Source of the DNA: Methylovulum sp.
GTDB taxonomy: Bacteria; Pseudomonadota; Gammaproteobacteria; Methylococcales; Methylomonadaceae
Assembly (NCBI GenBank): GCA_028712695.1
Contig: JAQTQZ010000016.1
Span: 8,678-72,677 of the forward strand
Reading direction: 5' to 3'
DNA: 64,000 nucleotides
The position numbers and the translations under genes are program-made. The notes under the pieces were generated by a model. It ran no database searches. It saw only the letters and a list, made by a program, of their open reading frames with translations, and was not told where the DNA came from. Of the stretch, positions 43,647-47,096 are shown in pieces. How positions within the stretch are numbered: the stretch's first letter is position 1; the number at the start of each line of letters is the position of its first letter.

Positions 43647-43784
43647 TGCCTTAGTCCAACTAATTTCCACCGCCTGCAGATTCCAGAACTTTTGCTTGTT
43701 TTACAACGTCGAAGAGGTTGTAATTTTTTTGAACACCAGTATATTTACCTTTCATTCAGACGGGTCTGCTACCATAACCCTCTT

Positions 43785-43809
43785 GTCCAATACATCAGAT
43801 GTATTGGAC
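43785..43809. promoter_or_regulatory. 25-bp palindrome (candidate operator)
   Basis: GTCCAATACATC-A-GATGTATTGGAC, ending 31 bp before the RiPP precursor ATG. Confidence 0.5.
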
Positions 43810-43840
43810 TTTTACAACACAAACCCTTTAGGAAAGCACA

Positions 43841-44509
43841 ATGAAAAAAATTAACAGAACACCTTTAGCGGCTGCCGTAGGCGTCGCATTTATTTCGACT
43901 TTTGCAAATGCTGCGGCTAATGCCGAAGTTAATCCATTTGGCATGACTGAGTTGTCCAGTGGTTATATGCAATTGGCCGAAGCGGGTAAGGCTGCTGAAA
44001 TGGCCTGTGGCGCATCCATGAATATGGATAAACCAGCAAAAACAGCAGAAGGTGCATGCGCGGGCAATAAAAAACCAGCAACTGCAGCGGCTACGGCTAA
44101 AACCGCTGAAGGCAAATGCGGCGATATGATGGCAGGCGACAAGATGAAAAAAGGTATGGAATCAGCCTGTGGCGCCATGATGAAAGGTAAAGAAGGTGCT
44201 TGCGGTGCCATGCAAGCAGGCGAAGAGATGAAAGGTAAAGAAGGTGCTTGTGGCGCTGGCATGAAAATGCCTGAAGGCAAATGTGGCGACCAATGCGGCG
44301 AGCAAATGAAAAACTGCCCAGACGTAAAAGCTAAAGAAGGCAACTGCGGTGCGCAAATGAAAGGTTGCGGCGAAGGCATGCAAGGTTGCGGCGAAATGAT
44401 GAAAGGCAAAGAAGGTGCTTGTGCAGCGAATAAAGCCACGCCTGCAACATCAGCAAAACCAGCTGTGCCGGCAGTTCCTGCAGTGCCCGTGGTACCCGCT
44501 AAAAAATAA
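43841..44509 (+). CDS. HvfA/BufA2-like RiPP precursor (oxazolin/bufferin type)
   Basis: Signal peptide, NPFGMTELSSGYMQLA motif, repeated EG(K/A/N)CG units, 13 Cys, 21 Met; directly upstream of DUF692. Confidence 0.85.
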   Translation: MKKINRTPLAAAVGVAFISTFANAAANAEVNPFGMTELSSGYMQLAEAGKAAEMACGASMNMDKPAKTAEGACAGNKKPATAAATAKTAEGKCGDMMAGDKMKKGMESACGAMMKGKEGACGAMQAGEEMKGKEGACGAGMKMPEGKCGDQCGEQMKNCPDVKAKEGNCGAQMKGCGEGMQGCGEMMKGKEGACAANKATPATSAKPAVPAVPAVPVVPAKK

Positions 44510-44597
44510 GCAGTAGCTTTTTATTTCTTAAAGATTTAAGGGGGCGTGGCTTCACGCTCTCTTTTCCCTCCTGATTAACTTATTCACAGGTGTTCTC

Positions 44598-45446
44598 ATG
44601 GACACAAACCAAAATCTTGTCCACGGCGCGGGCTTAGGTCTGCGGCGTTCCTTTTTAAACCAAATTGTTGATATGCCACCTGCGGTCGGTTTTTATGAAG
44701 TTGCCCCAGAAAATTGGATCACCCTTGGTGGCAGGTTAGGCAAACAGTTTAGGGCGATGACGGAGCGGTTCGATTTTGTCTGTCATGGCTTGTCATTGTC
44801 ATTAGGTAGCACCGATCCGCTGGACGAGGCGTTTGTCCGTGCCGTCAAGCAATTCATGCGCGACCATCAAATTAAGTTTTACAGCGAACACCTCAGTTAT
44901 TGCAGCAAAGACGGGCATTTGTACGACTTGATGCCTATTCCGTTCACCACCGAGGCAGTTAGCCATGTTGCCGCCCGTATCCGTCGTGTCCAGGATATTC
45001 TCGAGCAAAAAATCGCGATCGAAAACGTTTCTTATTACGCTGCGCCCGGCCAGGAAATGGCTGAGATTGATTTTTTCAACGCGGTTATTGCGGAAGCTGA
45101 TTGCGATATTTTAATCGACATTAACAATATTTATGTCAACAGTGTCAATCATGGTTATGATGCCGAAGCTTTTTTAAAGGCGGTGCCGGCGCAGCGTATT
45201 GCTTACGCGCATATTGCCGGGCATTATGTGGAGGCGGAAGATTTTCTGGTCGATACCCACGGTGCCGAGATTATTGATCCGGTCTGGAAATTGTTAGGCA
45301 AGGCTTACGAGCTTTACGGTGTGTTTCCTACCTTGCTGGAGCGGGATTTTAATATTCCGGCAATGACCGAACTGATGCGCGAAGTCAATACCATTAAGAC
45401 AATACAGCAGGCGTGGCATCAGCAGCATGCCCAGCAATCAGCTTGA
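44598..45446 (+). CDS. Multinuclear non-heme iron-dependent oxidase (DUF692, HvfB/MbnB family)
   Basis: GLGLRR, EVAPENW, HGLSLSLGS, SEHLSY, IENVSYY, DINNIYVNS, HIAGH, DTHG, LLERD. Confidence 0.92.
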   Translation: MDTNQNLVHGAGLGLRRSFLNQIVDMPPAVGFYEVAPENWITLGGRLGKQFRAMTERFDFVCHGLSLSLGSTDPLDEAFVRAVKQFMRDHQIKFYSEHLSYCSKDGHLYDLMPIPFTTEAVSHVAARIRRVQDILEQKIAIENVSYYAAPGQEMAEIDFFNAVIAEADCDILIDINNIYVNSVNHGYDAEAFLKAVPAQRIAYAHIAGHYVEAEDFLVDTHGAEIIDPVWKLLGKAYELYGVFPTLLERDFNIPAMTELMREVNTIKTIQQAWHQQHAQQSA

Positions 45447-46214
45447 ATGACGACGCTTATGAAAATCGATTTTAACGCCAAGCAGCGCGAATTTGCCGCC
45501 TATATTAGGGATCCTTACCATAATCCGGCACCAACCGATGCCAATGTGCAGCGCATGGCGATGTATCGGGAGCTTTTTTTTAATAATATCAACAGCTTCT
45601 TGTCCAGCAATTTCCCCGTTTTGCATGCAATACTTGATGACCAACAATGGTTCGAGCTGGTGCAGGATTTTTTTGCCAGACATCCGTGCAAATCACCGTA
45701 TTTTTCGGAAATACCCGAAGAATTTCTGGATTTTTTGCAAAATGAGCGTGACAACGCCGCCGATTTGCCGTTTATGTTGGAGCTTGCCCATTATGAATGG
45801 GTGGAAATGGCGTTATCCATCGCCCGGGAAGAACTGGTTGCCAATCAGGAAATAGGTACTGACCTGCTGGAGCGGCGCATCCGGTTGTCGCCGTTAGCTT
45901 GGCCTTTGGCCTATCAATACCCAGTCCATAAAATAGCACCTGCTTTTTTACCTACCGTGGCTCCAGCACAGCCGACTTTTCTGATCGTTTATCGCGATCC
46001 TCAGGATGACGTGAATTTTCTGGAAATTACGCCGATGACGTACCGGTTGTTGGAAATCCTTCAAGAGCAGGAAGGGCTTTTGACCGCAACATACTTAGAA
46101 CAAGTCGCAGTGGAAATGCAACATCCAAGTCCGGATACAGTTATTGCAGGGGGGTTAAAAATACTTCAGGAGCTGGCAGAAAAAATGATTATTAGCCTAT
46201 GCAAAGTCGAGTAA
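45447..46214 (+). CDS. MNIO partner protein (DUF2063, HvfC-like)
   Basis: FAAYIRDP, RMAMYRELFFNN, FLDFL, ELAHYEWVE, YPVHKI. Confidence 0.88.
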   Translation: MTTLMKIDFNAKQREFAAYIRDPYHNPAPTDANVQRMAMYRELFFNNINSFLSSNFPVLHAILDDQQWFELVQDFFARHPCKSPYFSEIPEEFLDFLQNERDNAADLPFMLELAHYEWVEMALSIAREELVANQEIGTDLLERRIRLSPLAWPLAYQYPVHKIAPAFLPTVAPAQPTFLIVYRDPQDDVNFLEITPMTYRLLEILQEQEGLLTATYLEQVAVEMQHPSPDTVIAGGLKILQELAEKMIISLCKVE

Positions 46215-46258
46215 GTTTTTTAACTTCTATTTGGGCTAAAGCTGATGGACGATTATAT

Positions 46259-46292
46259 AAAAAAGCCCCGATAGTTGTATTGGGGCTTTTTT
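46259..46292. terminator. Bidirectional rho-independent terminator
   Basis: AAAAAAGCCCC...GGGGCTTTTTT. Confidence 0.75.
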
Positions 46293-46311
46293 ATTTAACC
46301 TAAAACAATGA

Positions 46312-46860
46312 TTAAATTTTACCGTCCAAGCCCATTTGGAAATATTTATGGGTGATTTTATCTTGGTTTTCCAATAACCAGTCAATGCCAGGTTCATTGT
46401 TCATCGCTTTATGAATGGCCAAAGCGGTGGCCTTGCGGTGTATATCAAACAAAATTTGATGATCTAAATTATCATCGGTAGCAACACTTGGGTTTAACCA
46501 GACTGAGCAAATAATGCCTAAGTCATTGGCTTTTCCTTTAGGAATATCACCTGCCCGCACCGCATCTAAAACGCCGTTGGCAATTGCCGCCTGCACCGTA
46601 CCCATGAGGATGTTGGTGTAACGGGAATTATTGACGGTCACTTTACTGACCATTAAGGTCACTGGACGGACTTGAATATCCGTATTTAAAATAGCAAAAA
46701 CTTTCGAATGCCCTTTAGTTTGGCTGCCTGTTAAAGTCGCCAAGGCAGTGCCGACAGGACCGTCCAGTTCACCGATAATAATTTCAGGTTCAGCCGCAGT
46801 CCCGGGTGGGCCGCCAGCAACTAATGCTTCACCGGTGCGTAAAATAATTCGTCCACTCAT
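46312..46860 (-). CDS. fae: Formaldehyde-activating enzyme homolog
   Basis: GEALVAGG, EPEIIIG, GPVGTA, QTKGHS, VRPVTLMVSKV, QAAIANGVLDAV. Confidence 0.8.
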   Translation of the reverse strand: MSGRIILRTGEALVAGGPPGTAAEPEIIIGELDGPVGTALATLTGSQTKGHSKVFAILNTDIQVRPVTLMVSKVTVNNSRYTNILMGTVQAAIANGVLDAVRAGDIPKGKANDLGIICSVWLNPSVATDDNLDHQILFDIHRKATALAIHKAMNNEPGIDWLLENQDKITHKYFQMGLDGKI

Positions 46861-47096
46861 TTTTATCTCCAAAGAGGTTATACAAAAAACAATTTGTTGA
46901 AAGCGCTATCAACAAAGCCGTTGCGACGAAAAGCCGACAGTGCCAGACAAATCAACCACGATGATAAACTAACCCTCTGATGGGGACAAGGCAAGGTGGC
47001 GTGTCAATTGACAGGCAAGTTTTTCAGGTGATAAGCAAGTGGAGGCACGCCGTACAAGGCGCTCATGGCCTGTTGTAAAGCAAAAATTTTATCAGC

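Follow-up and report, generated by a model that had tools for sequence, protein, structure and literature searches.

The hvfABC operon of the window

The locus described here, positions 43841-46214 of a 64,000-nt stretch of Methylovulum DNA (the window, in whose coordinates all positions are given unless stated), holds three genes: a Cys- and Met-rich precursor gene, a maturase gene from the MNIO family (oxidative enzymes that depend on multinuclear non-heme iron) and a DUF2063 partner gene. Together they form an hvfABC operon for a RiPP, a peptide made on the ribosome and modified after translation. The three open reading frames (ORFs) lie where the original prediction had placed them, and the hvfC ATG abuts the hvfB TGA (TGAATG). 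The features of the locus are collected in Table 1.

Table 1. Features of the hvfABC locus, with the regions of the precursor and the second hvf cluster of the genome
Feature	Position	Strand	Basis
Promoter candidate of sigma-70-like type, TTGTAA-16 nt-TATATT, upstream of hvfA	43718..43745	+	consensus scan
5' leader hairpin, perfect 11-bp stem GTCCAATACAT/ATGTATTGGAC, loop CAG (3 nt), then TTTT	43785..43813	+	RNA fold
Ribosome-binding site AGGAAAG	43830..43836	+	read from sequence
hvfA-type precursor gene (222 aa)	43841..44509	+	ORF, composition
Precursor: predicted signal peptide, cleavage ANA/E	aa 1-28		
Precursor: leader (EVNPFGMTELSSGYMQLAEA...)	aa 29-55		
Precursor: Cys/Met-rich core (13 Cys)	aa 56-197		
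Precursor: Pro/Ala/Val tail	aa 198-222		
Stem-loop in the hvfA-hvfB intergenic region, 11 bp, -15.7 kcal/mol, T/C-rich tail after	44538..44563	+	RNA fold, orthologous loci
hvfB, MNIO (DUF692) maturase, 282 aa	44598..45446	+	NF003818, PF05114
hvfC, DUF2063 partner with RRE-type C-domain, 255 aa	45447..46214	+	NF050145, PF09836, PF22106
A-run/stem/U-run hairpin between convergent hvfC and Fae-like ORF	46257..46294		RNA fold
Second, canonical hvf cluster, metal(loid)-stress neighbourhood	contig C59, locus L004:4231-12789		

The hvfB product scored 441.1 bits against the HvfB model NF003818 (cut-off 360) and 354.5 bits against PF05114; the hvfC product scored 317.4 bits against the HvfC model NF050145 (cut-off 142), with 96.6 bits for PF09836 and 113.6 bits for PF22106. 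Aligned to PDB 3BWW (E = 6e-73), HvfB has the blocks HGLSLSLG, S(E/D)HLS, EN.SYY, D(I/V)NNIYVN, HIAGH, LVDTHG and LLERDFN either unchanged or conservatively replaced, and HvfC matched PDB 3DEE (NGO1945) at E = 4e-10. Among these blocks, HvfB keeps SEHLS, ENVSYY, DINNIY (Asn) and VDTHG (Asp219/His221), and thus the Asn, Asp and His that align to iron site 3. The iron-ligand roles of the blocks are those described for homologues and are predicted to hold here. Published site-3 ligands are N175, D242 and H244 (bioRxiv 10.64898/2026.07.17.739211).

Two related families were tried and rejected. The BufB model NF050167 gave 272.2 bits, below its cut-off of 310, no DUF2282 precursor is present, and Phe rather than Asp follows the catalytic Asp; bufferins are a separate family, so that of the original label "HvfABC/bufferin" the first half stands (an HvfABC-type MNIO RiPP operon with a Cys-rich precursor predicted to be exported) and the second does not. 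The methanobactin model TIGR04159 (MbnB) gave 52.9 bits against a cut-off of 325, and the partner is DUF2063, not MbnC.

The precursor has 222 aa with 13 Cys and 21 Met (~10% Met) and contains every motif first listed for it. Judged from its sequence, the N-terminus (MKKINRTPLAAAVGVAFISTFANAAANA, cleavage before E, then EVNPFGMTELSSGYMQLAEA) has the n/h/c layout of a Sec-type signal peptide with an AxA cleavage site. The core holds EGKC twice (C93, C148), EGAC four times (C73, C121, C137, C194), and single ESAC (C110), EGNC (C169), KGC (C176) and QGC (C183) motifs; CGDQCGEQMKNC spans C148-C159 and the tail reads PAVPAVPAVPVVPAKK. Sorted by context, eight Cys lie in E-x-x-C-G, two in EGAC-A, and three fit neither pattern (one before Pro, two in (K/Q)GCG). 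The precursor had no Pfam match, DUF2282 included, and a search of the genome for additional orphan precursor copies found none at E <= 0.01. AlphaFold2, run with a 44-sequence alignment, returned no usable fold (pLDDT 49, pTM 0.17), and the unmodified precursor is predicted to be disordered.

Products of the HvfABC class carry 5-thiooxazoles, made from Cys, which bind copper (PMC11252979, revised in PMC13097082; bioRxiv 10.64898/2026.07.17.739211). In the three characterised EGKCG systems the 5-thiooxazole is installed, Cu is bound, and a role in detoxification or sequestration has been proposed (PMC13097082; PMC11252979). By analogy, we assign the window operon to the captophorin (oxazolin/fontiphorin) class, with a predicted thiooxazole Cu(I)-binding product that probably acts in periplasmic copper buffering or sequestration; we put the probability of this reading at about three in four. 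The oxazolin operon HvfABC(X) of nontypeable Haemophilus influenzae (PMC11252979) has the same precursor-MNIO-DUF2063 order. As in oxazolin, HvfB and HvfC of the window pass the equivalog models, the precursor appears to be Sec-exported, and the modified Cys would be expected in E-G-x-C-G. Unlike the oxazolin precursor (95 aa, 8 Cys, 6 modified), the longer, Met-rich window precursor has only two exact EGKCG motifs, the rest being EG[A/N]CG, ESACG and G-C-G, and lacks an AEGKCGEGKCG repeat; its operon has no HvfX/DoxX and comes from an environmental methanotroph rather than a pathogen.

Several points weigh against this assignment. The precursor scored 20.7 bits against the NCBIfam HvfA model NF050188, whose cut-off is 95; this model is narrow, and the canonical-looking paralogous precursor on contig C59 of the same genome also falls below it (28.6 bits). 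Canonical EGKCG accounts for 2 of the 13 Cys, and the Cys in KNC-P, KGC, QGC, GDQC and EGAC-A may be left unmodified. Since FonBC processed non-Lys or non-Gly variants only partially in vitro (PMC13097082), the number of modified Cys is uncertain. In addition, no copper-related gene adjoins the window operon, and neither a copper-responsive regulator nor an operator was identified at it.

A Met-rich precursor sub-type in the methanotroph family

Precursor homologues numbered 667, and every named match among the best 120 is from Methylococcales. The best of them carry the annotation Methylovulum, and M. miyakonense reaches 80% identity. These matches, together with a PmoB encoded in the genome (641 bits; assembly of 3.79 Mb in 110 contigs), bear out the earlier description of the host as a probable methanotroph. 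HvfC orthologues (48-81% identity) occur in 147 of the 151 sampled genomes of the methanotroph family, Methylomonadaceae (97%), and in all 36 of its 36 genera; a paralogous HvfC type at ~40% identity is confined to a subset of family genomes. Across the class, any HvfB-like gene was found in 257 of 401 genomes. On a quick maximum-likelihood tree, the family HvfB proteins form one side of a branch (SH-aLRT 92), and the genome's own HvfB paralogue falls among other Gammaproteobacteria on a long branch of unsure placement. This topology is in keeping with vertical inheritance of the window copy.

For comparison, the gene upstream of hvfB was extracted from 60 orthologous family loci, of which 54 precursors were compared, and from 40 HvfB loci of other gammaproteobacterial families, of which 33 were compared; two mis-picked ORFs (L067, 59 aa; L078, 449 aa) were set aside from the length statistics. 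At four family loci (L073 and L086 of genus g26, L070 and L093) no precursor ORF was found directly upstream of hvfB, two of the four having an extracytoplasmic function (ECF) sigma/anti-sigma pair nearby; either these loci are arranged differently or the start of the precursor escaped the scan. One genome (G130:C1:611500-628800; L091, L092) has two identical hvfABC copies on the same strand ~10.7 kb apart, with identical 245-aa precursors, and this pair is a recent segmental duplication.

The 54 family and 33 other precursors share the signal peptide and the leader (E/A)NPF(G/A)MTELSSGYM(Q/V)(V/L)AE, and because this recognition region is common to both sets the window protein is a true HvfA-family precursor. 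The gene nth lies directly upstream in most loci of both sets, so the nth-hvfA linkage is old. Beyond the leader the two sets diverge. EGKCG accounts for 222 of 266 Cys sites in the other Gammaproteobacteria and for 77 of 472 in the methanotroph family; the residue before Cys is Lys in 92% of the former, as against Ala (30%), Lys (29%) or Ser (19%) in the latter. Median Met content of the mature protein rises from 2.8% in the other set to 11.3% in the family, and a Met follows within five residues of the Cys at 42 of 266 and 303 of 472 sites, respectively. Family precursors are also longer (median 175 aa, range 102-271, against 124 aa) at a similar number of Cys (median 8, range 3-16, against 7). 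The family logo is E(81%)-G(58%)-[A/K/S]-C-G(81%).

The window precursor had been called expanded and atypical. It ranks about tenth by length in the family set, and the combination of 13 Cys and ~200-225 aa recurs in 10 of the 54 family precursors, of which its own genus supplies six and other genera four; within the genus, 6 of 8 members have this 13-Cys architecture, the window included. Buf_EGKCG/oxazolin precursors in print run from 31 aa to 506 aa and reach 58 Cys (PMC12452194), so the window protein is not exceptionally large and "expanded" does not hold. "Atypical" is apt when it is set against canonical HvfA from non-methanotrophs, and inapt within the family, where a Met-rich EG[A/S/K]CG core is the norm. 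Like the long precursors reported by Leprevost et al. in 2025 (PMC12452194), it has a predicted signal peptide, several Cys and the size of a protein, and sits beside MNIO and DUF2063 genes. Unlike the mid-size precursor of that study, a regular EGKCG repeat predicted to form a beta-helix, it is non-regular, Met-rich and predicted to be disordered. On sequence evidence, the system is a known one and not new, and the Met-rich, Lys-poor HvfA sub-type is its variant specific to this lineage.

As far as the published literature was searched, this methanotroph sub-type is undescribed. We found no paper that joins MNIO with Methylococcales, none of the best 20 of 697 matches for DUF692 plus a methanotroph genus mentions DUF692, and the supplements of a methanotroph CRISPRi screen mention none of DUF692, DUF2063, HvfB and MNIO.

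DNA repeats at 44180, 44228 and 44399 (family D1) exist as originally reported, the core ATGAAAGGTAAAGAAGGTGCTTG being identical in copies 1 and 2; their reading as recent unit duplication did not survive comparison with relatives. The positions of the three MKGKEGAC units are shared by all genus members examined and by another genus. At the DNA level the units agree at 25-27 of 30 sites within the window genome and at 23-28 of 30 between genomes, and identity inside the genome is thus no greater. The similarity of the units is thus explained by a conserved peptide motif and limited codon choice.

In the 44-sequence alignment a five-Cys module, EM.CGA.M ... EGACAG ... EGKCG.MM.GDKMKKGME..CGAMMKGKEGACG, is followed by a variable extension. 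C56, C73, C93, C110 and C121 are invariant or nearly so, and the extension with C137-C194 is absent from many genera. The C-termini of the orthologues at L035-L094 show two alternative conserved tails. The window protein has the first, rich in Pro/Ala/Val, whose last residues are ...P(A/V)PAKK or ...VVPYVP(A)KK; the second closes with ...(V)D(P/A)DKAAGE or ...PKDAAGE. Such conservation suggests an interaction or processing motif.

The restriction of conserved Cys to five positions could also mean that HvfBC modifies only these, the extension being filler, or that the precursor is largely or wholly an unmodified Cys/Met-rich metal binder. The bias of FonBC against non-canonical contexts (PMC13097082) points the same way. 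We regard this as very improbable: hvfB and hvfC are intact, tightly coupled and kept with the precursor in nearly every genome, the family Cys sites keep E at -3 (81%) and G at +1 (81%), and the selectivity residues of HvfB are unchanged. In FonB, Arg15/Arg16 and Asp249/Phe250 govern recognition of Glu, Lys and Gly (PMC13097082). The same residues are present in window HvfB (GLGLRRSF, LLERDFN), Arg-Arg and Asp-Phe occur in all 60 family HvfB proteins, and ERD-F in particular is found in 60/60 family and 39/40 other HvfB proteins.

Among positions that are near-fixed in both HvfB sets, a single one differs. Position 216 is Phe in 98% of family HvfB proteins and Leu in 97% of those from other Gammaproteobacteria, and it lies three residues before D219/H221, the pair aligned to site-3 ligands. 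This change may track the substrate's loss of Lys. Fontiphorin FonABC (Fontimonas thermophila) and gonophorin NgoABC (PMC13097082), both "Lys-Cys" captophorins, have the same MNIO-PME1 pair and the same selectivity residues as the window operon, from which Cu-binding 5-thiooxazoles would likewise be expected. They differ from the methanotroph family in that only 29% of the family's sites have Lys before Cys and in its lineage-specific Phe216.

Operon signals and the second hvf cluster

The promoter candidate is part of a TTGTA(A/T)-N16-TATATT block common to seven genomes of the genus in an alignment of orthologue upstream regions, and TAGGAA/GGAG is kept at the position of the ribosome-binding site. 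Five loci from other genera (L043, L045, L046, L049 and L053) have a different conserved block ~100-130 nt upstream of hvfA, AAGGATATTCATTC...TTTAGACGG.TTTGATATGATAAG, which includes the extended -10-like TGnTATGAT; L046 has a direct duplication of the AAGGATATTCATTC unit. The block may be a regulator site.

Between promoter and start codon, the region 43750-43845 folds at -21 kcal/mol (z = -3.0; 0 of 200 shuffles equal) into the leader hairpin, which ends 27 nt upstream of the hvfA ATG. Attenuator, 5' stabiliser and dimeric operator are all possible functions for it. About 20 relatives also have leader hairpins, of unrelated sequence, that end 25-32 nt before the ATG. As a family-wide element, however, the leader hairpin was rejected, since hairpins of <= -9 kcal/mol are only weakly enriched there (20/53 loci against 13/106 shuffles). 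An Rfam scan of the leader and intergenic regions matched no family; the palindrome alone resembled a CRISPR repeat model, by chance and below threshold.

The stem-loop after the precursor gene is better conserved. Hairpins of <= -9 kcal/mol stand at this place in 49 of 53 orthologous loci although their sequences are unrelated, and 18 of 37 real intergenic regions reach <= -12 kcal/mol, compared with 0 of 111 shuffles. RiPP operons classically have a hairpin in this place, which yields more precursor than enzyme, and the one in the window is a candidate partial terminator or 3' stabiliser that would set the precursor:enzyme ratio. Downstream of hvfC, the region 46215-46311 folds at -29 kcal/mol (z = -4.8; 0 of 200 shuffles equal), and its hairpin is a predicted bidirectional intrinsic terminator that would close the operon. 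The convergent ORF beyond it (46312-46872) is a putative Fae, formaldehyde-activating enzyme, which would suit a methanotroph host.

The genome encodes two MNIO genes, both Hvf-type. The second lies in the canonical hvf cluster on contig C59, which includes an ArsM-like methyltransferase, an ECF sigma factor (TIGR02943), an anti-sigma-E factor and a GDCCVxC protein. It further comprises a 113-aa precursor of EGKCG/EGGCSG type, HvfB' (401 bits; ERD-S, not ERD-F), HvfC' (248 bits) and HvfX/DoxX (133 bits against a cut-off of 80), and also contains an ArsS radical SAM protein and a DedA-fused MerA-like oxidoreductase. The enzyme pairs of the window and C59 are 58% and 40% identical. HvfX scores above its cut-off only on C59 in this genome, the window operon having none. 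The earlier remark that neither DoxX nor an ECF sigma gene adjoins the window operon is therefore accurate, with the addition that the genome has both in the C59 cluster and that their lack is the family norm (0/60 family loci have DoxX next to the operon and 2/60 have an ECF sigma factor there). Core genes, DoxX among them, are known to occur "in various combinations" (PMC12452194). The C59 cluster has the canonical stress-type arrangement.

The arsenic- and mercury-type neighbours of C59 (ArsM-like, ArsS, GDCCVxC, MerA-like) are in keeping with the possibility that the modified peptide of the window operon chiefly handles another thiophilic metal (Hg, Ag, Au or Zn) or buffers redox and oxidative stress in the periplasm, copper being incidental. 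MNIO-PME1 clusters of other bacteria respond to gold and oxidative stress (PMC13097082; PMC5413113), some bufferin fusions are MerC-linked (PMC12452194), and Cys- and Met-rich sequences also scavenge oxidants. Against this, copper is bound by each of the three EGKCG-type products that have been characterised, the window copy has no metal-specific neighbours, and Met-rich motifs are known above all as Cu(I)/Ag(I) sites. We consider the explanation improbable for the window operon and retain copper as the predicted ligand.

Predicted product and role in copper handling

Under the copper-buffering reading, the pathway may be pictured as follows. Because the conserved hairpin follows the precursor gene, the precursor would be made in excess over the enzymes. 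HvfC would bind the conserved leader NPFGMTELSSGYMQ, and, ahead of Sec export, the iron enzyme HvfB would turn Cys in E-x-x-C-G/A contexts into 5-thiooxazoles at the expense of O2; going by context, 8 to 10 of the 13 Cys would be modifiable, the rest being uncertain. After export, signal peptidase I would cut behind ANA, leaving a product of ~194 residues, presumably disordered, that could be retained in the periplasm or released. This product would bind several Cu(I) through the N and S donors of its thiooxazoles, and Met thioethers (CGAMM, MKKGM) would add or relay more Cu(I). Met-rich motifs are typical periplasmic Cu(I) ligands, as in CopA, PcoC and CusF. The window operon would be a vertically inherited "housekeeping" copy without DoxX or sigma factor, and C59 the stress-type copy. 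The most likely role, by analogy with characterised relatives, would be to buffer or sequester copper in the periplasm of an organism whose copper traffic is heavy. The bulbicupramide cluster of Microbulbifer (PMC12538549) is likewise a lineage-wide RiPP cluster, in its case copper-binding and in a different lineage.

The same chemistry could instead serve copper supply. Copper supply and its control are central to methane oxidation by particulate methane monooxygenase (pMMO), and a periplasmic Cu(I) reservoir or chaperone, or a chalkophore set free by proteolysis and release, might feed pMMO in methanotrophs without methanobactin. In methanobactin operons (MbnABC) of alphaproteobacterial methanotrophs an MNIO turns Cys of a ribosomal peptide into a heterocycle-plus-sulfur copper ligand, as is predicted for the window operon. 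Unlike those operons, the window operon lacks MbnC, MbnT, MbnM and MbnPH; its precursor is protein-sized and predicted to be Sec-exported rather than a short leader-core peptide, and a 5-thiooxazole rather than an oxazolone/thioamide would be expected from it. As the only two MNIO genes of the genome are both Hvf-type, the genome has no methanobactin operon, which together with the low MbnB score upholds the original view of the system as distinct from methanobactin.

Several observations are in keeping with supply. The operon is present in nearly every genome of a pMMO-dependent family, well above the frequency of any HvfB-like gene across the class, and this genome has PmoB without an MbnB-type MNIO. 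The window operon has no stress sigma factor and a genus-conserved sigma-70-like promoter, the stress-type cluster being a separate paralogue, and the Met-rich core is lineage-specific. Any chalkophore of mbn-less methanotrophs must be unlike methanobactin (Kenney & Rosenzweig, PMC3621798), and cleavage of EGKCG products into smaller peptides has been left open (PMC13097082). On the other hand, what switches on the characterised 5-thiooxazole pathways is excess copper, gold or oxidative stress and not starvation (PMC13097082), and no TonB-dependent receptor, protease or exporter is linked to the operon. Some Gammaproteobacteria that are not methanotrophs (L098, L100, L115, L121, L131) also have the nth-hvfABC linkage and Met-rich cores, and since roughly every second Pseudomonadota reference genome has MNIO-PME1 clusters, no special reason is needed for methanotrophs to have them. 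A supply role is an unlikely alternative to buffering or sequestration. More speculative still is the idea that the Met-rich, Lys-poor HvfA might be the missing copper-handling peptide of mbn-less gammaproteobacterial methanotrophs, a multi-site thiooxazole and Met Cu(I) carrier for pMMO, with HvfB L216F having co-evolved with the substrate motif.

Methanobactin explains copper supply only for some alphaproteobacterial methanotrophs, and the mbn-less type I case has been left open (PMC3621798). If the window product is only a copper-stress buffer like its relatives, the hvfABC of methanotrophs is an ordinary family member. An operon for a predicted thiooxazole-type peptide in 97% of sampled family genomes is nevertheless a candidate for part of the methanotroph copper economy, and the lineage-specific Met-rich core, paired with a change near the active site of the enzyme, would offer a natural test of how MNIO enzymes select Cys.

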